A stretch of 64,000 nucleotides of DNA from Escherichia coli (GTDB lineage Bacteria; Pseudomonadota; Gammaproteobacteria; Enterobacterales; Enterobacteriaceae), in the NCBI RefSeq assembly GCF_003018235.1, contig NZ_CP027437.1. One strand, 5' to 3'. Of the stretch, positions 1,622-48,759 are shown in pieces; within the stretch, counting starts at the first letter, position 1; each line of letters begins with the position of its first letter. The translations under genes and the position numbers were made by a program. A model generated the notes under the pieces. It saw only the letters and a program-made list of their open reading frames with translations, ran no database searches and was not told the DNA's origin.

Positions 1622-2236
1622 TTTTATATTATGCCAACAACGGAGCGTAGCAGTGTTTCTATATATAGTACGCCTACCTTAATTTTCAAATAATCATGAT
1701 TAATGAGCAGGTCATCAGTGCAAGCAATGACCTGCTCATCTTGTTGAAATTAGAGGAAATCTTGAAGCCATGATATGGCTTAAAATAACGTTTGATTATT
1801 TTACCTGCTGTTTGTCCCTGGTTTAAAGTCGGTTGTCTGATTTGATTACGCGCAACTGACGCTTACGTATTGAAGTAACGAGCACGAAGACACATATTTA
1901 TCAGTGCCTGTATACGTCAAGAGCAGGAGATTTATGTGCTGGTTCTCAAATGCACGCTGGCTATTGTGGCTGTAATGGCAATTTATTGTCTTGTTATTGT
2001 TCTTATGGATCACCTTACTGATTGATTTCATATTGGCGAGGTAACGGTAGTTAAGTAGAATGGCTGCGGGTGCTTGAGGCTATCTGCCTCGGGCATGAAC
2101 ACCAACGGCAGATAGAGAAAAGCCCCAGTTAACATTACGCGTCCTGCAAGACGCTTAACATTAATCTGAGGCCAATTTCATGCTAGACACATGTAGGTTA
2201 GCCTCTTACGTGCCGAAAGGCAAGGAGAAGCAGGCT

Positions 2237-2392
2237 ATGAAGCAGCAAAAGGCGATGTTAATCGCCCTGATCGTCATTTGTTTAACCGTCATAGTGACGG
2301 CACTGGTAACGAGGAAAGACCTCTGCGAGGTACGAATCCGAACCGGCCAGACGGAGGTCGCTGTCTTCACAGCTTACGAACCTGAGGAGTAA
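2237..2392 (+). CDS. hokD: Hok-family type I toxin HokD (RelF), 51 aa
   Basis: Translation MKQQKAMLIALIVICLTVIVTALVTRKDLCEVRIRTGQTEVAVFTAYEPEE; SD aaggag 6 nt upstream of the ATG. Confidence 0.9.
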   Translation: MKQQKAMLIALIVICLTVIVTALVTRKDLCEVRIRTGQTEVAVFTAYEPEE

Positions 2393-2860: not shown

Positions 2861-2926
2861 ACTCATCTACAATCTTGCGCGGGGCTGAACTCCCGCTGAG
2901 TAACACCGTGCCACCGGAGAAAACCG

Positions 2927-3205
2927 ATGGCACGCAACGTAAAATATTACAATTCTGATAATTCGCCCGTTCTTGCCTGCACGCACGAGCGGTATTCTCA
3001 CGCATTCAAGTCTGAATGGTTCCAGCACCCTCCATGCACTGAAGAGCAGGCTGAATGGATAATTCAGTGTTACCGCAGGCGCGGATACGAGGTTAAGAAA
3101 GCCCTTAGTCTCGACTACCGTCACTGGATAATCTCAGTCAGATTGCCTTACTCCGAACGCCCACCGCGTCCGTCCCGTACATTCCAGCAACGCATCTGGA
3201 GGTAA
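2927..3205 (+). CDS. Hypothetical Cys/His-rich protein (92 aa) directly upstream of ydfU
   Basis: ORF ends 1 nt before the ydfU GTG start; no recognisable family. Confidence 0.4.
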   Translation: MARNVKYYNSDNSPVLACTHERYSHAFKSEWFQHPPCTEEQAEWIIQCYRRRGYEVKKALSLDYRHWIISVRLPYSERPPRPSRTFQQRIWR

Positions 3206-3206
3206 C

Positions 3207-4256
3207 GTGCGGGTATTACTTCGACCTGTTCTGGTACCGGAACTCGGGCTGGTGGTCGTTAAGCCGGGCCGTGAATCCATGCCGGTATTCCACAATACCC
3301 GGGTACTGGTGGAGCCGGAACCGAAAAGCATGCGTAATCTGCCGTCCGGGGTCGTTCCTGCCGTTCGCCAGCCGCTGGTGGAAGACAAAACATTGCTGCC
3401 GTTTTTCAGTAACGCACGGGTAATTCGTGCTGCTGGTGGTGCTGGTGCATTGTCTGACTGGCTGTTGCGCCATATTAAATCCTGCCAGTGGCCACACGGC
3501 GATTATCATCACAGTGAAACCGTTATTCACCGTTATGGTACCGGCGCAATGGTGTTGTGCTGGCACTGCGACAACCAGCTGCGTGACCAGACATCCGAAT
3601 CACTCGAGCAACTTGCTCATCAAAACCTGTCAGCATGGATGATTGACGTCATCGGTCACGCAATAAGCGGTACGCAGGAGCGTGAATTATCTCTGGCTGA
3701 ATTATCCTGGTGGGCGGTCCGCAATCAGGTGGCGGACGCGCTACCGGAAGCGGTATTACGTCGCTCGCTGGGATTACCAGCGGAAAAAAACTGCTCGGTG
3801 TACCGCGAAAGCGACATCGTACCGGGAGAGCAGACCGCCACCAGCATATTGAAACAGCGCACAAAAAATCTTGCACCGTTGCCTCACGCCCACCAGCAAC
3901 AAAACCCATCACAGGAAAAGACGGTGGTAAGCATCACCGTTGATCCAGAGTCTCCGGAATCTTTCATGAAGCTGCCTAAACGTCACCGTTGGGTTAAGGA
4001 GAAATACACACGCTGGGTTAAGACACAGCCGTGTGCTTGCTGCGGTATGCCAGCCGACGATCCGCATCATCTGATTGGTCACGGGCAGGGCGGAATGGGA
4101 ACCAAAGCACATGATCTCTTTGTGTTGCCTTTGTGCAGAAAGCATCACGACGAGCTGCATGCGAATACCGTGGCATTTGAAGAGAAGTATGGCTCCCAGC
4201 TGGAGCTGATATTTCGTTTTATCGATCGTGCGCTGGCAATAGGCGTACTGGCGTAA
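3207..4256 (+). CDS. ydfU: DUF968 protein YdfU with C-terminal HNH-like Cys/His cluster
   Basis: 349-aa ORF with GTG start and SD ggagg; C-terminus CACCGMPADDPHHLIGHGQGG...CRKHHDELH. Confidence 0.85.
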   Translation: MRVLLRPVLVPELGLVVVKPGRESMPVFHNTRVLVEPEPKSMRNLPSGVVPAVRQPLVEDKTLLPFFSNARVIRAAGGAGALSDWLLRHIKSCQWPHGDYHHSETVIHRYGTGAMVLCWHCDNQLRDQTSESLEQLAHQNLSAWMIDVIGHAISGTQERELSLAELSWWAVRNQVADALPEAVLRRSLGLPAEKNCSVYRESDIVPGEQTATSILKQRTKNLAPLPHAHQQQNPSQEKTVVSITVDPESPESFMKLPKRHRWVKEKYTRWVKTQPCACCGMPADDPHHLIGHGQGGMGTKAHDLFVLPLCRKHHDELHANTVAFEEKYGSQLELIFRFIDRALAIGVLA

Positions 4257-7350: not shown

Positions 7351-7650
7351 AAAAATTCCTTAATACTGATAACTTGGCGCACTATACACACGTTCCTGAA
7401 GAAAGCTATAGTTTTTTGATGGGGTTGAAGATGGCTGGATGTCTAAAATAAACATTGCTTCATATGTTCAACTATGCGTTAATGATTGCGTCGGTTTGAA
7501 GAACAGACGATATACGAAGTAGTTTACTAAAGCAGTTCTCATTTCAGGTGTTATTCACTTATTCCTTCTTTGAGTCTCTCCAATTAAGTACGAAGTCGTT
7601 TCTGTTATGCAAACCATTTATGCCGAAAGGCTCAAGTTAAGGAATGTAGA

Positions 7651-7866
7651 ATGTCAAATAAAATGACTGGTTTAGTAAAATGGTTTAACGCTGATAAAGG
7701 TTTCGGCTTTATTTCTCCTGTTGATGGTAGTAAAGATGTGTTTGTGCATTTTTCTGCGATTCAGAATGATAATTATCGAACCTTATTTGAAGGTCAAAAG
7801 GTTACCTTCTCTATAGAGAGTGGTGCTAAAGGTCCTGCAGCAGTAAATGTCATCATTACTGATTAA
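7651..7866 (+). CDS. cspB: Cold-shock-like protein CspB
   Basis: 71-aa translation [26 protein letters not shown]... with the CspA-family RNP motifs. Confidence 0.9.
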
Positions 7867-8147
7867 AATTCATCGCTCGTCTGTATACGATAACGAAGAA
7901 GGCTGATGCCTGAGTAGAGATACGGACAGAGTAGTGAATATTGGATCTCTTTAATAAAAAGTAAGGAGATCCAATACATGAAACAATGGCCAGCATATTT
8001 GGCAAAATCTTAATCAGGAAAAGTATGCTAACCATTGTGGTGAAGTGCAGGTTTGCTGCATGAATAGTTTCACAGCAGAAGCTAACTGCTGGCATCGCAA
8101 AACAAAGTGCGTAAGTGGATGACTCCCACAAAAAGCACCACAATCTC

Positions 8148-10175: not shown

Positions 10176-10535
10176 GGTAATATTAAATCGGAACATTTAC
10201 ATCGCGGAATGTAAAATTTAAATAAAAAGGACTCTTCCATGAGCCAAAATTCCTGAAATCTTAAGGGTAAGAAAAGGTCTTAATCAGAATGACACGTTTT
10301 ATTAATAAATAAAGCTATTCTTTCATTGCTGTGTTTTTCTTTACAAAAGTAATCCTTGCTATGGGTGGTTAATCATGCGTTAATGGTGTTCTGGTTTGTT
10401 ACAAATTTATCTGAAGCAGTCATTGTTATAATTTTATTATTTGTACCTCTTGGGATTTCCTTGTTGGTTTTTCTCTCTGATATTTTTTTTCGGACCATTC
10501 TGCCCAAGGGCTAATTTCTTCAAAAGGTAATAATT

Positions 10536-10748
10536 ATGTCTAACAAAATGACTGGTTTAGTGAAATGGTTTAACCCTGAAAAAGGTTTTGGTTTCATCAC
10601 GCCGAAAGATGGCAGCAAAGATGTGTTTGTCCATTTCTCAGCAATTCAGAGCAACGATTTCAAAACATTAACTGAGAATCAGGAAGTTGAATTTGGTATT
10701 GAGAACGGACCTAAAGGTCCTGCCGCTGTTCATGTAGTGGCGCTTTGA
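10536..10748 (+). CDS. cspI: Cold-shock-like protein CspI
   Basis: 70-aa translation [26 protein letters not shown]... Confidence 0.9.
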
Positions 10749-10952
10749 GGTAGACAATATTACAAACCATATTCACTTTAGATGCCCGTGTTGTCATGGT
10801 TCCCAGTATAGAACATCATCTTTTGATGTTTCTGACATGAATCCTTTCGGGGCAAAATGTATCTTTTGTAAATCAATGATGATTACATTTGATAATATTT
10901 CACAATACTTAAATGCCAGCCGTCTGTCGTTGGATTTAAAAAAGTGAAAATG

Positions 10953-35677: not shown

Positions 35678-36252
35678 TGGCATTCAGAATGAGTGAACAA
35701 GCACGGACCATAAAAATTTATAACCTGCTGGCCGGAACTAATGAATTTATTGGTGAAGGTGACGCATATATTCCTCCTCATACAGGTCTGCCTGCAAACA
35801 GTACCGATATTGCACCGCCAGATATTCCGGCTGGCTTTGTGGCTGTTTTCAACAGTGATGAGGCATCGTGGCATCTCGTTGAAGACCATCGGGGAAAAAC
35901 GGTCTATGACGTGGCTTCCGGCGACGCGTTATTTATTTCTGAACTCGGCTCATTACCGGAAAATGTCACCTGGTTATCCCCGGAAGGGGAGTTTCAGAAG
36001 TGGAACGGTACAGCCTGGGTGAAGGATACGGAAGCAGAAAAACTGTTCCGGATCCGGGAGGCGGAAGAAACAAAAAACAGCCTGATGCAGGTAGCCAGTG
36101 AGCATATAGCGCCGCTTCAGGATGCTGTGGATCTGGAGATCGCAACGGAGGAAGAAACCTTGTTGCTGGAAGCCTGGAAAAAGTATCGGGTGTTGCTGAA
36201 CCGTGTTGATACATCAACTGCACCGGATATTGAATGGCCAGCCCTACCGTAG
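35677..36252 (+). CDS. tfa: Tail fibre assembly protein Tfa
   Basis: 191 aa; start overlaps stf stop (ATAATGG). Confidence 0.85.
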
Positions 36253-43183: not shown

Positions 43184-45229
43184 ATGACAACAATGAATCC
43201 TTTCCTTGTGCAAAGCACACTGCCGTATCTGGCTCCCCATTTTGATCAAATTGCCAATCATCACTATCGCCCGGCATTCGATGAGGGAATGCAGCAAAAG
43301 CGGGCAGAAATTGCTGCCATCGCGCTTAACCCGCAAGCGCCTGATTTCAACAATACTATTCTGGCACTGGAACAAAGCGGAGAATTACTTACCCGCGTTA
43401 CCAGCGTCTTTTTTGCGATGACTGCGGCGCATACCAATGATGAATTACAGCGTCTTGATGAACAGTTTTCCGCTGAACTGGCGGAACTGGCTAATGATAT
43501 CTATCTGAACGGTGAATTATTCGCGCGGGTAGATGCTGTCTGGCAGCGCCGTGAATCTCTTGGGCTTGATAGTGAATCCATCCGCCTGGTGGAGGTGATT
43601 CATCAGCGTTTTGTCCTTGCCGGAGCCAAACTTGCGCAAGCTGATAAAGCAAAATTAAAAGTACTGAATACAGAAGCTGCGACCCTAACCAGCCAGTTTA
43701 ACCAGCGGTTACTGGCAGCAAATAAATCCGGCGGTCTGGTTGTGAACGATTTCGCGCAGCTGGCAGGAATGAGTGAGCAAGAGATTGCGCTGGCGGCAGG
43801 GGCGGCTCGCGAGAAAGGTCTGGATAACAAATGGCTGATTCCGTTGCTGAATACCACCCAGCAACCAGCGCTTGCTGAACTGCGCGATCGCGCGACGCGT
43901 GAAAAACTGTTCACTGCGGGCTGGACGCGAGCGGAAAAAAATGATGCCAATGATACCCGCGCTATCATTCAACGTCTGGTGGAGATCCGCGCGCAGCAGG
44001 CGAAACTGCTTGGTTTCCCTCATTATGCCGCATGGAAAATCGCCGATCAGATGGCAAAAACGCCAGAAGCAGCACTCAACTTTATGCGGGAAATTGTTCC
44101 AGCGGCGCGTCAACGTGCGAGCGATGAATTAGCCTCCATACAGGCGGTTATCGATAAGCAGCAGGGCGGGTTTAGCGCGCAGCCGTGGGACTGGGCATTT
44201 TATGCCGAGCAGGTAAGACGTGAGAAATTCGATCTCGATGAATCGCAGCTCAAGCTATATTTTGAATTAAACACGGTGTTGAATGAAGGTGTATTCTGGA
44301 CCGCGAATCAGCTCTTCGGTATTAAGTTTGTCGAACGTTTTGATATTCCTGTCTACCATCCTGACGTTCGTGTGTGGGAAATTTTTGATCATAATGGCGT
44401 GGGGCTGGCGTTATTTTACGGTGATTTCTTCGCCCGTGATTCAAAAAGCGGCGGTGCATGGATGGGCAATTTTGTTGAGCAATCATCGCTTAATGAAACG
44501 CATCCGGTAATTTATAACGTCTGCAATTATCAGAAACCCGCTGCCGGTGAGCCTGCGTTGTTACTCTGGGATGATGTCATAACCTTATTCCATGAATTTG
44601 GTCATACGTTGCACGGCCTCTTTGCCCGCCAGCGTTATGCCACACTTTCCGGCACCAACACGCCGCGTGATTTTGTCGAATTTCCGTCGCAAATCAACGA
44701 ACACTGGGCAACGCATCCGCAGGTATTCGCTCGCTACGCCCGGCATTATCAGAGCGGGGCAGCAATGCCTGACGAACTGCAACAGAAAATGCGTAATGCC
44801 AGCTTGTTCAACAAAGGGTATGAGATGAGCGAACTGCTTAGCGCCGCACTTCTCGATATGCGCTGGCATTGCCTGGAAGAAAACGAAGCAATGCAGGATG
44901 TCGATGATTTCGAATTGCGGGCGCTGGTGGCGGAAAATATGGATCTTCCCGCTATACCGCCACGCTATCGCAGCAGTTATTTCGCCCATATTTTTGGTGG
45001 CGGATATGCCGCAGGTTATTACGCTTATCTGTGGACACAAATGTTGGCCGATGATGGTTACCAGTGGTTTGTTGAGCAGGGCAGATTAACGCGTGAAAAT
45101 GGGCTGCGTTTTCGCGAGGCGATCCTTTCCAGAGGTAACAGCGAGGATCTGGAACGCCTGTATCGACAATGGCGCGGTAAGGCACCTCAGATTATGCCGA
45201 TGCTGCAACATCGTGGCTTGAACGTATAA
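43184..45229 (+). CDS. dcp: Peptidyl-dipeptidase Dcp (M3 metallopeptidase)
   Basis: 681 aa with HEFGH zinc-binding motif; SD caggag. Confidence 0.92.
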   Translation: MTTMNPFLVQSTLPYLAPHFDQIANHHYRPAFDEGMQQKRAEIAAIALNPQAPDFNNTILALEQSGELLTRVTSVFFAMTAAHTNDELQRLDEQFSAELAELANDIYLNGELFARVDAVWQRRESLGLDSESIRLVEVIHQRFVLAGAKLAQADKAKLKVLNTEAATLTSQFNQRLLAANKSGGLVVNDFAQLAGMSEQEIALAAGAAREKGLDNKWLIPLLNTTQQPALAELRDRATREKLFTAGWTRAEKNDANDTRAIIQRLVEIRAQQAKLLGFPHYAAWKIADQMAKTPEAALNFMREIVPAARQRASDELASIQAVIDKQQGGFSAQPWDWAFYAEQVRREKFDLDESQLKLYFELNTVLNEGVFWTANQLFGIKFVERFDIPVYHPDVRVWEIFDHNGVGLALFYGDFFARDSKSGGAWMGNFVEQSSLNETHPVIYNVCNYQKPAAGEPALLLWDDVITLFHEFGHTLHGLFARQRYATLSGTNTPRDFVEFPSQINEHWATHPQVFARYARHYQSGAAMPDELQQKMRNASLFNKGYEMSELLSAALLDMRWHCLEENEAMQDVDDFELRALVAENMDLPAIPPRYRSSYFAHIFGGGYAAGYYAYLWTQMLADDGYQWFVEQGRLTRENGLRFREAILSRGNSEDLERLYRQWRGKAPQIMPMLQHRGLNV

Positions 45230-45593
45230 ACACCACCAATGGCTGGCCTGGATTTATCGCCAGACCAGCCTCGTTATAGCAGTAATTGCAGCAGCTGGGT
45301 GAGGGCAAACTTCACCGCTAATGCGAATGCCGTTTCGCAGTCGCCAGCAAAATTACTTTTTTTGTATACCCTTCCGTTATAATAATTTTCAAATTTATAA
45401 ATCTGATTGTTCTGAAATATGTTTAAGACTCTTTAATCTTCTTCTTACTTTAGTGAGTAAAATTCTCTGAATATTTGACAGCTAGTTGCCTGATTTTAAA
45501 TGCCTTATAACAATTGGCAGTATTCTTATTTGTCAATTATAAAAATAGCAACCAGACTTAATAAGTCAAACCAAACGCAATTAAGGAGTCAGT

Positions 45594-46240: not shown

Positions 46241-47131
46241 ATGATCAAGAAGACAACGGAAATTGATGCCATCTTGTTAAATCTCAATAAGGCTATCGAT
46301 GCCCACTACCAGTGGCTGGTAAGTATGTTTCGCAGCGTAGTCGCGAGAGATGCCAGTAAGCCAGAAATAACGGATAACCATTCTTATGGACTGTGCCAGT
46401 TTGGTCGGTGGATTGATCATCTGGGACCACTCGATAATGATGAATTACCTTATGTTCGGCTAATGGATTCTGCCCATCAACATATGCATAACTGTGGTCG
46501 GGAATTAATGCTGGCTATTGTTGAAAATCACTGGCAGGACGCGCATTTCGACGCCTTTCAGGAGGGGTTGCTTTCTTTTACTGCGGCATTAACCGATTAC
46601 AAAATTTATTTGCTGACGATCCGTAGCAATATGGATGTTTTGACGGGATTGCCGGGTCGTCGGGTTCTTGATGAATCCTTTGATCATCAGTTACGCAACG
46701 CTGAGCCTCTGAATCTTTATTTAATGTTGTTGGATATTGACCGATTTAAATTGGTTAATGATACCTACGGGCATTTAATCGGCGATGTAGTATTACGCAC
46801 CCTGGCAACTTACTTAGCCAGTTGGACGCGCGATTACGAAACGGTTTATCGCTACGGTGGCGAAGAATTTATCATTATTGTCAAAGCGGCTAATGATGAA
46901 GAAGCATGTCGTGCAGGTATCAGAATTTGCCAGTTAGTCGATAACCATGCCATCACACATTCTGAAGGGCATATCAACATTACCGTGACAGCAGGTGTGA
47001 GTCGCGCATTTCCTGAAGAGCCTCTGGATGTGGTCATTGGAAGAGCGGACCGGGCAATGTATGAGGGTAAGCAAACCGGAAGAAATCGCTGTATGTTTAT
47101 TGACGAACAAAACGTGATTAACCGAGTTTAA
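46241..47131 (+). CDS. dgcZ: Zinc-sensing diguanylate cyclase DgcZ (YdeH)
   Basis: N-terminal zinc-binding domain then GGEEF active site (RYGGEEF); 296 aa. Confidence 0.9.
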   Translation: MIKKTTEIDAILLNLNKAIDAHYQWLVSMFRSVVARDASKPEITDNHSYGLCQFGRWIDHLGPLDNDELPYVRLMDSAHQHMHNCGRELMLAIVENHWQDAHFDAFQEGLLSFTAALTDYKIYLLTIRSNMDVLTGLPGRRVLDESFDHQLRNAEPLNLYLMLLDIDRFKLVNDTYGHLIGDVVLRTLATYLASWTRDYETVYRYGGEEFIIIVKAANDEEACRAGIRICQLVDNHAITHSEGHINITVTAGVSRAFPEEPLDVVIGRADRAMYEGKQTGRNRCMFIDEQNVINRV

Positions 47132-47142
47132 GCTCCGTTTAA
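47126..47142 (+). promoter_or_regulatory. PhoP box (direct repeat GTTTAA-N5-GTTTAA) upstream of MgrR
   Basis: Perfect hexamer direct repeat with 5-nt spacer, overlapping the dgcZ stop codon. Confidence 0.6.
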
Positions 47143-47176
47143 CATTCATTGAGAAAACTGATGCTACTGTGTCAAC

Positions 47177-47274
47177 GATCCGTTATCAGTGCAGGAAAAT
47201 GCCTGTTAGCGTAAAAGCAAAACACAAATCTATCCATGCAAGCATTCACCGCCGGTTTACTGGCGGTTTTTTTT
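47177..47274 (+). ncRNA. mgrR: Putative PhoP-activated Hfq-binding sRNA MgrR (5' end approximate)
   Basis: PhoP box upstream; intrinsic terminator accgcc-ggtttact-ggcggt followed by tttttttt at 47247-47274; between dgcZ and mgtS. Confidence 0.45.
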
Positions 47275-47349
47275 CGCCGTCATAAAAATCAGGCCCCTTG
47301 TACACAGTTGTAACAAGGGGCCGGTTAGGTGAGGGATTATCTCCGTTCA

Positions 47350-47445
47350 TTAGTCATCCCATTTGTGGCTGAAATACGCGGCCAGAAAACCAGAAAATAA
47401 AATTATTCCCAGTACGGCCATAAAAACATTCATATTACCCAGCAT
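47350..47445 (-). CDS. mgtS: Small membrane protein MgtS (YneM), 31 aa
   Basis: MLGNMNVFMAVLGIILFSGFLAAYFSHKWDD; SD ggagg 7 nt upstream; hairpin terminator at 47281-47322. Confidence 0.8.
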   Translation of the reverse strand: MLGNMNVFMAVLGIILFSGFLAAYFSHKWDD

Positions 47446-47571
47446 TATTTGCCTCCGTTTATGGTGTGGTGTGTTTCCTCGCTTACCTTAATTTTCATCT
47501 CAATGAGAAAGATATTAGCAGAGGTAACCTAAACGAAGGCTGAATTAAATTTTTATTGTGTTCGACTTAAA

Positions 47572-48759
47572 TCAACAAAGCGCGGGCTGCCCCCACGGTC
47601 TTGCACGAATTCCTTTTAACATCAGCACCCACGCAGCAACGATCACCAACGCTAAGATGATAAACAGCGAGAAAGGCGGCAGACTGGTAAGTACTATGCC
47701 ACTCACTAATGGGTTAATCGCCGCACCAAGCCAGCCTAAAGACTGGGCGGAAAAATAGCTGGCTTTCATTCCTGGCGGTGCAATATGGTCAATCAACATA
47801 TACTCGCCCGGCGCATAAATGATTTCACCGACAGTAAATACCGCAGCTGACATACCCCACAATAGCAGGCTGTTGCCGGAAAAAATAAAACCAACCAGAC
47901 CGATGACGAAACAGAGGGTGCCTGCTGTCATCAGCGCGCGGATGTTAGCCGGGTTAAGGCGGCGGCCCACGGAATATTGCAACGTAACCACCATGGCAGC
48001 ATTCACCGGAAGAACAACCGCGACCACCTTTTCGGCAAAATCCCCATCAGCAATCACCATCACATATTGTGAAATGCACGAGGCAAATGCGCCGCTAACA
48101 AAGGAAGCCAGAAAACCAGAGCAGGTAAACCACAACAGTGCTTTATCTTGTAATAAAACTTTCGGCGACCAGGCACTGCCTGTTTCCGTGGCGATGATTT
48201 TCTCGCTGCGCTTTACCCAAATTTGAATGAAAAGCATGGGAAACGCGGAACAGATAGCTGCCAGCCAGAAGGGCAGATTGATGCTCTGCATCACCAACAA
48301 CGTGCCGAGCGGCGGACCGATGGTCCAGCCAATGTTTAGCATGGTGTAGTTGATTGAGAAGATTTTCGTTTTGCTGGTGGACGAAAGATTGTCGGCAAAC
48401 CAGGCTTTCAACACGGTAGCAAAAACGGAATAGGCGCAGTTAATGAGGGCAAAAAAGAGCACCACCAGCGTCACGTTATTCACTAAAGGAATGGCAATAA
48501 AACCGCTGGCGAAGGCGGTAATTGCCAGTAACATATAGCGTTTCTTGTCGAACTTATCCGCCAGGATACCAAAACCGAGGCTAAAAACGACGCCAATAGT
48601 GAGCGCAATTGTCATCGCATAACCGATTAGATCGACACTCAGGTTGTACTGGCGACTCAAGTAAATGGTCATAAACGGCAGCGTAGCGCCGCGTCCGATG
48701 GTTAATAACAACGACGAGGCAAGAAGGGCGCTGGTAGAGCGTCGGAGGGATAAGTTCAT
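47572..48759 (-). CDS. ydeE: MFS transporter YdeE
   Basis: 395 aa, about 12 transmembrane segments. Confidence 0.85.
   Translation of the reverse strand: MNLSLRRSTSALLASSLLLTIGRGATLPFMTIYLSRQYNLSVDLIGYAMTIALTIGVVFSLGFGILADKFDKKRYMLLAITAFASGFIAIPLVNNVTLVVLFFALINCAYSVFATVLKAWFADNLSSTSKTKIFSINYTMLNIGWTIGPPLGTLLVMQSINLPFWLAAICSAFPMLFIQIWVKRSEKIIATETGSAWSPKVLLQDKALLWFTCSGFLASFVSGAFASCISQYVMVIADGDFAEKVVAVVLPVNAAMVVTLQYSVGRRLNPANIRALMTAGTLCFVIGLVGFIFSGNSLLLWGMSAAVFTVGEIIYAPGEYMLIDHIAPPGMKASYFSAQSLGWLGAAINPLVSGIVLTSLPPFSLFIILALVIVAAWVLMLKGIRARPWGQPALC

Follow-up and report, generated by a model that had tools for sequence, protein, structure and literature searches.

What is encoded between dgcZ and ydeE in Escherichia coli, and does each part of this region answer to PhoP? 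The question arose for a window of 64,000 nucleotides of E. coli DNA, the whole stretch that was analyzed and to which all positions below refer. In this window, a first-pass annotation had placed a PhoP box, the small RNA (sRNA) MgrR, and the convergent small membrane protein MgtS side by side at the end of dgcZ. We identified the region, with a probability of about 0.96, as the E. coli mgrR/mgtS-mgtT locus, consisting of two convergent transcription units that would each be activated by PhoP at low Mg2+. No evidence contradicting the identification of mgrR and mgtS was found. PhoP/PhoQ-dependent convergent transcription of the two genes has been published (PMC6239178, PMC3536696, 10.1101/2021.06.30.450655), and the locus is thus already known and well studied, ordinary rather than new; the parts that were absent from the first-pass annotation, namely, mgtT, the upstream open reading frame (ORF) CDS58, and the mgtS promoter, are all published or readily inferred. 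The regulation and functions described below are taken from the literature; the identities, the conservation of motifs, and the complementarity between the MgrR seed and eptB are our own observations.

The identity of the locus was established by comparison with annotated genomes. Over 46900-47700, the window and E. coli strain GMF054 were 100% identical, and of 5426 complete E. coli genomes, 5416 contain the locus. In K-12 MG1655, the annotated gene order is dgcZ, mgrR (b4698, 98 nt), mgtT (b4775), mgtS (b4599), and ydeE, and the order in the window matches it; according to the alignment, the whole intergenic region is 98% identical to that of K-12. The RefSeq/PGAP annotation of GMF054, for the same sequence from 46900 to 47700, omits mgrR. 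For a comparison across genera, we gathered 19 loci from species-representative genomes with the help of an 18-mer from the MgrR core. These came from 14 Citrobacter genomes, E. albertii, E. whittamii, another E. coli, Salmonella enterica subsp. arizonae, and a metagenome-assembled genome (MAG) labelled Raoultella, and the window brought the set to 20 sequences. Eight chance matches of the 18-mer in unrelated phyla were discarded; conservation, where it is mentioned below, refers to Escherichia, Citrobacter, Salmonella, and this one MAG. The features of the locus are listed in Table 1.

Table 1. Features of the mgrR/mgtS-mgtT locus, with positions in the window and the basis of each assignment
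Feature	Position	Strand	Basis or remark
dgcZ (diguanylate cyclase DgcZ/YdeH)	46241..47131	+	RefSeq annotation of GMF054; NCBIfam NF007380, 521.6 bits vs cut-off 256
mgrR PhoP box, AGTTTA-AGCTC-CGTTTA(A)	47125..47142 (-52 to -35 vs mgrR +1)	+	Unique repeat; conservation; published PhoP dependence
mgrR extended -10, TGcTACTGT	47162..47170	+	6 nt upstream of annotated +1; TGn-TAnnnT conserved in 20/20
mgrR, Hfq-dependent sRNA MgrR (= STnc560), 98 nt	47177..47274	+	K-12 b4698 coordinates transferred; RF01407
MgrR 5' stem-loop	47181-47211 (nt 5-35)	+	Predicted fold
MgrR A-rich/ARN Hfq site	47213-47227	+	Predicted fold, consistent with probing in PMC6239178
MgrR seed U55-A68	47231-47244	+	Published seed; computed eptB pairing
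MgrR terminator stem	47248-47267 (nt 72-91)	+	8 pairs, 6 of them G-C
MgrR U8 tail	47267-47274	+	T8 after terminator hairpin
mgtT, 34-aa ORF	47350..47246	-	RefSeq/K-12 annotation; ATG overlaps mgtS stop (TAATG); last 29 nt antisense to mgrR terminator/3' end
Intrinsic-terminator-like hairpin of the mgtS transcript, inside mgtT	47282..47322	-	Folding; paired in Rfam consensus structure
mgtS (yneM), 31-aa single-pass membrane protein, MLGNMNVFMAVLGIILFSGFLAAYFSHKWDD	47445..47350	-	Identity with K-12 b4599; NCBIfam NF033842
CDS58, 17-codon upstream ORF, MKIKVSEETHHTINGGK	47498..47445	-	Sequence; TAA stop overlaps mgtS ATG
mgtS promoter: predicted PhoP box AATTCA-GCCTT-CGTTTA (47546 to 47530), 12 nt, -10 TAATAT (47517 to 47512)	47512..47546	-	Sequence motif
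ydeE (MFS exporter), flanks mgtS upstream on the same strand	47572..48759	-	NCBIfam NF007472, 799 bits

PhoP-activated promoters carry the repeat (T/G)GTTTA-N5-(T/G)GTTTA in the -35 region, and upstream of mgrR two perfect GTTTA cores likewise form a direct repeat, at a period of 11 bp, although the half-sites begin with A or C here and with T or G in the consensus. The perfect repeat that had been reported at the dgcZ stop codon is indeed present at 47126-47142 on the + strand, where GTTTAAgctccGTTTAA, equal to GTTTAAGCTCCGTTTAA, is the only match in the 64-kb window; the number of matches expected from 100 dinucleotide-preserving shuffles was 0.00. Since dgcZ ends at 47131, its TAA stop (47129-47131) falls within the first, distal half-site. 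A looser consensus, KGTTTA-N5-KGTTTA with up to 2 mismatches, was not rare, with 20 matches found in the window against 16.9 expected. The distinctive signal therefore lies in the two perfect GTTTAA cores and their placement. This placement was highly regular. In 20 of 20 sequences from the Escherichia, Citrobacter, and Salmonella set, the proximal half-site (C/T)GTTTA was followed, after exactly 23 nt, by TGn-TAnnnT. In the window, TACTGT occupies positions -12 to -7 relative to the mgrR +1 (47177) and is directly preceded by TGc, which makes it an extended -10 element. A generic scan of 46900-47700 for a sigma-70 -35/-10 pair found none; in this respect, mgrR is like other PhoP-activated promoters and would rely on its extended -10. 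The missing pair would fit activator-dependent promoters without a -35 element, and it was not counted against the promoters proposed here. Another candidate -10 for mgrR, AAAACT (47154-47159), 12 nt from the box, was rejected as it is not conserved in Citrobacter, unlike TGn-TAnnnT at 23 nt. PhoP dependence of the sRNA, which the first-pass annotation had assumed, agrees with the invariant proximal half-site and spacing in the comparison set and with the PhoP/PhoQ-dependent transcription of mgrR published for K-12 (PMC6239178, PMC3536696, 10.1101/2021.06.30.450655).

Downstream of this promoter, a transcript of about 100 nt ending in a strong intrinsic terminator had been expected. The hairpin at 47248-47267, followed by T8, fits this expectation and is the sole terminator-like site on the + strand in 46900-47700. 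A search with Rfam models gave a single match here, the family STnc560 (RF01407) at 47143-47356, with 280.2 bits against a gathering score of 55, an E value of 4.6e-65, and a full-length match to model positions 1-214 of 214. None of the matches for this region was to a family named MgrR, so the covariance model that supported the proposed identity did so strongly, but under another name. STnc560 is known as an RNA of about 90 nt that was co-immunoprecipitated with Hfq in Salmonella and that is encoded between ydeI and ydeE, on the strand opposite yneM (PMC2515195); mgrR in the window is likewise convergent with mgtS (yneM) and close to ydeE. The 214-nt model exceeds the 98-nt RNA at both ends, by 34 nt on the promoter side and by 82 nt on the downstream side, where it takes in the hairpin of mgtS along with the first 7 nt of mgtS antisense. 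Therefore, the Rfam coordinates are not the ends of the RNA. The ends were instead transferred from K-12 b4698, with which the match coincides and to which the window is identical at 97 of 98 nt. The K-12 and window genes have in common the position between dgcZ and mgtT/mgtS, the promoter, the seed U55-A68, and the terminator with its U8 tail, and the one difference is at nt 4, 5' of the first stem, which is T in K-12 and C in the window (47180). With the 5' end mapping to 47177, the earlier estimate of 47165-47180 was correct.

The structure of the RNA was examined by folding. MgrR was predicted to form a 5' stem-loop, an open center, and the terminator, with a free energy of -25.9 kcal/mol and a z score of -2.9. 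In this predicted fold, AAAAGCAAAACACAA is unpaired, and U8 comes directly after a GC-rich stem of 8 bp, so that the modules for Hfq binding are present. By nuclease probing, the pairing region U55-A68 and an A-rich tract of the (ARN) type had been assigned to a single-stranded center (PMC6239178), and the modeled fold matches this probed structure. Over the two stems, standard pairs account for 94% of the alignment cells of the 20 distinct sequences, with 2 compensatory pairs; this covariation is modest, in keeping with a shallow phylogeny. The core (nt 36-71) was near invariant in the 20 sequences, a result that is partly built in because the loci were collected by an 18-mer from this core. 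Hfq dependence and low-Mg2+, PhoQ/PhoP-dependent expression would be expected in the window strain by analogy with K-12, for which they have been described (PMC6239178, PMC3536696, 10.1101/2021.06.30.450655).

Two other explanations of the + strand features were considered, both of which start from dgcZ. The perfect GTTTAA repeat might be a by-product of the C-terminal codons and stop codon of dgcZ (…CGA GTT TAA) rather than a selected PhoP site. The perfect 6-5-6 repeat, and with it the perfect distal half-site, is indeed confined to E. coli and E. whittamii, in which dgcZ borders on the box; elsewhere among the 20 sequences the distal half-site is degenerate (TAGTTG, TAGTTA, TGATTT, and similar), and one E. 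coli genome has GTTTTA at this site, which abolishes the dgcZ stop. However, neither the proximal half-site nor its spacing varies in any of the 20 sequences, which makes a by-product origin very improbable. Moreover, the pairing of a strong with a weak half-site is common in PhoP boxes, for which the consensus, the tolerance of up to 3 mismatches in functional boxes, and variable distances have been reported (PMC7667037), and the PhoP dependence of mgrR has been published (PMC6239178, PMC3536696). The other explanation takes the stretch of about 100 nt as merely the 3' untranslated region (UTR) of dgcZ with its terminator, with no independently transcribed sRNA. It draws on the terminator scan: after the dgcZ stop (47131), the first + strand terminator is the hairpin at 47248-47267. 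Lacking an earlier one, dgcZ transcripts probably also end at this MgrR terminator and carry the MgrR sequence. A 3' UTR as the sole explanation is nevertheless excluded, with hardly any likelihood left to it, because Citrobacter and Salmonella keep the promoter (half-site, 23 nt, and extended -10) and the RNA downstream of sequence that bears no relation to dgcZ; the Salmonella intergenic region is that of ydeI/ydeE (PMC2515195). Two further points speak against it: an mgrR-lacZ fusion reaching only to +10 is PhoP dependent (PMC3536696), and K-12 is annotated with a separate noncoding RNA. The stretch is thus best read as mgrR with a PhoP-activated promoter of its own.

We then compared the single-stranded core of MgrR with the eptB leader of K-12; eptB of the window strain lies outside the window. 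The best duplex joined nt 55-68 of MgrR to positions -6 to +8 of eptB, spanning the start codon, with an energy of -17.6 kcal/mol. This energy is not exceptional, as 150 of 1000 shuffles gave a duplex as good. The position of the duplex equals that of the published seed, U55-A68 (PMC6239178), and since the energy is unremarkable, the pairing serves as a consistency check rather than as proof. When the whole of MgrR was folded with the eptB leader, the result was discarded, as it consisted of meaningless long duplexes that were no better than those of shuffles.

On the opposite strand, the convergent 31-aa membrane protein that had been named MgtS was found at 47445..47350. All 31 of its residues are identical to those of K-12 MgtS (b4599), and the NCBIfam equivalog NF033842 matched it with 80.6 bits (cut-off, 35), covering residues 1-31 of 31. 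The protein has a single hydrophobic segment, VFMAVLGIILFSGFLAAYF, of 19 residues with a mean Kyte-Doolittle value of 2.34. MgtS raises the level of MgtA and, with MgrR, acts on PitA (PMC11429745, PMC6239178, 10.1101/2021.06.30.450655). Upstream of the gene, the motif xxTTCA-N5-xG(T/C)TTA-N12-TAnTAT occurred in 15 sequences, including the window, and 2 more with intact upstream sequence failed at the -10 alone. From this motif, mgtS is predicted to have its own PhoP-box promoter, conserved across four genera, and PhoP- and PhoQ-dependent transcription of yneM (mgtS) has been published (PMC11429745, PMC3536696). The two promoters differ in geometry: the distance from the end of the box to the -10 is 23 nt at mgrR versus 12 nt at mgtS, which puts the mgrR box one helical turn further upstream. 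We infer a transcription start site near 47505 for mgtS. A promoter further upstream, TTTAAT (47549 to 47544), would fit one reading of the "+91" end-point of a published fusion (PMC3536696); it was rejected as the main mgtS promoter, the region not being conserved. Between the predicted start and mgtS lies CDS58; within the comparison set, only E. coli and E. whittamii have an intact copy of it. An identical peptide was reported by PIRT-Seq, with a weak signal in a western blot (PMC12350097).

The first-pass annotation had also given MgtS a terminator of its own. This holds in part. A terminator-like hairpin does exist on this strand; however, it sits inside an annotated gene, mgtT. The hairpin has 13 pairs and one bulge and runs from 47322 to 47292, with a free energy of -21.9 kcal/mol, and AUUUUUAU follows at 47289 to 47282. 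It was missed by a simple terminator scan of 46900-47700, probably because of the bulge, and was recovered by folding. The hairpin is conserved across genera, with a variable loop. It would act as a terminator, and most mgtS mRNA probably ends at 47322-47292. Together with a start near 47505, this predicts an mgtS mRNA of about 220 nt. In Salmonella, the yneM mRNA (STnc570) is about 190 nt long (PMC2515195); in S. arizonae, termination at the equivalent hairpin would give about 210 nt, estimated by eye, which is close to that size.

The stop codon of mgtT lies 34 nt past the last U of the U tract, so full-length MgtT would need read-through of the hairpin. The ORF has the same length in K-12 (b4775) and shares the TAATG overlap, with 33 of 34 residues identical to BW25113/K-12; residue 15 is T in the window and V in BW25113/K-12, owing to two changes at 47307-47308, in the loop of the hairpin. 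RefSeq labels the MgtT variant of the window type a "hypothetical protein," and no NCBIfam model matched MgtT. Ribosome profiling and tagging detected the product (10.1101/511675), as did PIRT-Seq (PMC12350097). The mgtS-mgtT operon is PhoQP dependent, and MgtT is not membrane bound and has shown no phenotype upon deletion or overexpression (PMC11429745). In the comparison set, the ATG overlapping the mgtS stop was kept in 19 of 19 sequences. The length of the ORF behind it varied from 9 to 66 aa across genera: at nine Citrobacter-type loci, it stops in the hairpin loop after 14 aa, and in S. arizonae it extends over 60 codons, antisense across the whole of mgrR. Within codons 2-9, the variable sites numbered 3, 6, and 7 at codon positions 1, 2, and 3, respectively, a distribution without third-position bias that gives no sign of selection on the mgtT peptide. 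Judged by its length, its stops, and this codon-position pattern, MgtT is not conserved as a protein outside Escherichia.

The fact that mgtT crosses the hairpin invites another reading, in which the hairpin is not mainly a terminator; it would instead be part of an mgtS-mgtT mRNA that runs antisense into mgrR, and the convergent units would interfere with each other. Such read-through is suggested by the position of the mgtT stop codon, by the detection of MgtT with three methods (ribosome profiling, tagging, and PIRT-Seq), by the overlap of the mgtT start with the mgtS stop in every sequence compared, and by the S. arizonae ORF that spans all of mgrR. However, the hairpin with its U tract resembles a normal terminator, and the size of the Salmonella yneM mRNA is near the estimate for termination at that point. 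MgtS also outnumbers MgtT (10.1101/511675), the mgtT deletion is without phenotype, and neither the ORF length nor the codon positions point to a selected peptide. We therefore consider it unlikely that the hairpin serves mainly for read-through. The comparison did separate two aspects of mgtT: 19 of 19 sequences keep the coupled start and an ORF that reaches or enters the hairpin, whereas the length and sequence of the peptide are not conserved. It is conceivable, at long odds, that mgtT matters through its translation and not through its peptide. Re-initiating ribosomes would then enter the left arm of the hairpin, suppress termination, and allow antisense transcription over the 3' end of mgrR. 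If this were true, the levels of MgrR and of the small-protein mRNA would be tuned against each other.

With termination at the hairpin as the preferred reading, the parts of the locus can be assembled into the following model. At low Mg2+, PhoQ would phosphorylate PhoP, and both convergent promoters would be activated. On the + strand, phosphorylated PhoP would bind the repeat at 47125-47142, just upstream of the expected position of a -35 element, and recruit RNA polymerase to TGcTACTGT, so that transcription would start at G47177. The resulting MgrR would consist of the 5' stem-loop, the A-rich site for the distal face of Hfq, the seed (nt 55-68), and a Rho-independent terminator, whose U8 tail would bind the proximal face of Hfq. 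Together with Hfq, the seed would pair over the start codons of eptB and also of ygdQ and pitA and block their translation, and the repression of these targets would change the modification of lipopolysaccharide (LPS) and the balance of Mg2+ and phosphate. On the - strand, the second PhoP box, which precedes TAATAT by 12 nt, would drive a short mRNA in which the 17-codon leader ORF, mgtS, and mgtT are linked through overlapping stop and start codons. MgtS, an inner-membrane protein, stabilizes the Mg2+ importer MgtA.

The present analysis leaves the established picture of the locus unchanged. It may serve as a positive control, as a characterized sRNA had been placed within a few bases from the logic of promoter and terminator alone. 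Its added value is modest and twofold. mgrR is missing from the automatic NCBI annotation of the strain, and the comparison across genera separates the truly conserved features of the promoters and indicates that mgtT is kept as a coupled start codon and not as a protein. For E. coli, the locus is a textbook case in which PhoQ/PhoP uses an sRNA and a small protein together against Mg2+ stress and in LPS modification and sensitivity to antimicrobial peptides.

The small open reading frames next to mgtS were compared across enterobacterial genera. The stop codon of mgtS overlaps the start of mgtT, an annotated gene missing from the first-pass annotation, and this overlap was kept in 19 of 19 sequences, across genera. 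The mgtT frame reads through the putative terminator hairpin of mgtS and overlaps the 3' end of mgrR by 29 nt. Its length varied across genera from 9 to 66 aa, and no third-codon-position bias was detected in mgtT in the cross-genus comparison. At the locus of Salmonella enterica subsp. arizonae (L016, around 2923-3300), where MgtS is MLGSINLFIVVLGIILFSGFLAAWFSHKWDD, an mgtT-like frame spans 60 codons and is antisense to the entire mgrR. On the other side, the mgtS ATG is overlapped by the stop codon of a 17-codon upstream ORF, identical to CDS58 of the PIRT-Seq study (PMC12350097). Therefore, three small ORFs form a chain through TAATG overlaps. Among the sequences examined, the 17-codon ORF was intact only in E. 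coli and E. whittamii.

Features of the mgrR-mgtS region and Rfam matches elsewhere in the window
Feature	Position	Strand	Remark
17-codon upstream ORF	47445-47498	-	MKIKVSEETHHTINGGK
mgtT	47246-47350	-	annotated gene
Block CATTCATTGAG	47143-47153		directly downstream of the PhoP box, at the mgrR -35 position
sok antitoxin RNA	2068-2242		Rfam match above gathering score
cspA-type thermoregulator leaders (two)	7490-7913, 10390-10775		Rfam matches above gathering score
IS009	36020-36218		Rfam match above gathering score

The block next to the PhoP box is strongly conserved across genera as (A/G)C(A/T/C/G)T(T/C)CATTG and does not resemble a -35 hexamer. In E. coli SCPM-O-B-8794 (L012), the distal PhoP half-site is GTTTTA at the equivalent of window 47126-47131, so that the TAA stop codon of dgcZ is lost; the dgcZ frame is a few codons longer and ends at a TGA within the conserved CATTGAG block. 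From the dgcZ stop codon up to the MgrR terminator (47131-47274, plus strand), no terminator-like site belonging to dgcZ was found. The MgrR terminator is probably also the end of dgcZ mRNAs, whose 3' untranslated region would carry the MgrR sequence.

Elsewhere in the window, at 45227-45345, most of ydeJ, a gene that K-12 carries between dcp and ydeI, has been deleted, and a 3'-terminal remnant of about 115 nt is all that is left; the RefSeq annotation of E. coli strain GMF054 has a pseudogene fragment at this position. The sok match and the two cspA-type leaders were missing from the corresponding GMF054 positions; thus, the left part of the window is unlike the GMF054 genome. Our guess is that it is a Qin-type prophage segment with hok/sok and csp genes.

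The mgrR-mgtS locus had no match in 10 of 5426 E. coli genomes, and plasmid-labelled records accounted for 5 of the 5435 matches. In Citrobacter amalonaticus (L015, 642-744 and downstream), mgrR and its PhoP-box promoter are present without an adjoining mgtS, and unrelated sequence lies beyond the MgrR terminator. The sRNA is therefore separable from the small-protein gene.
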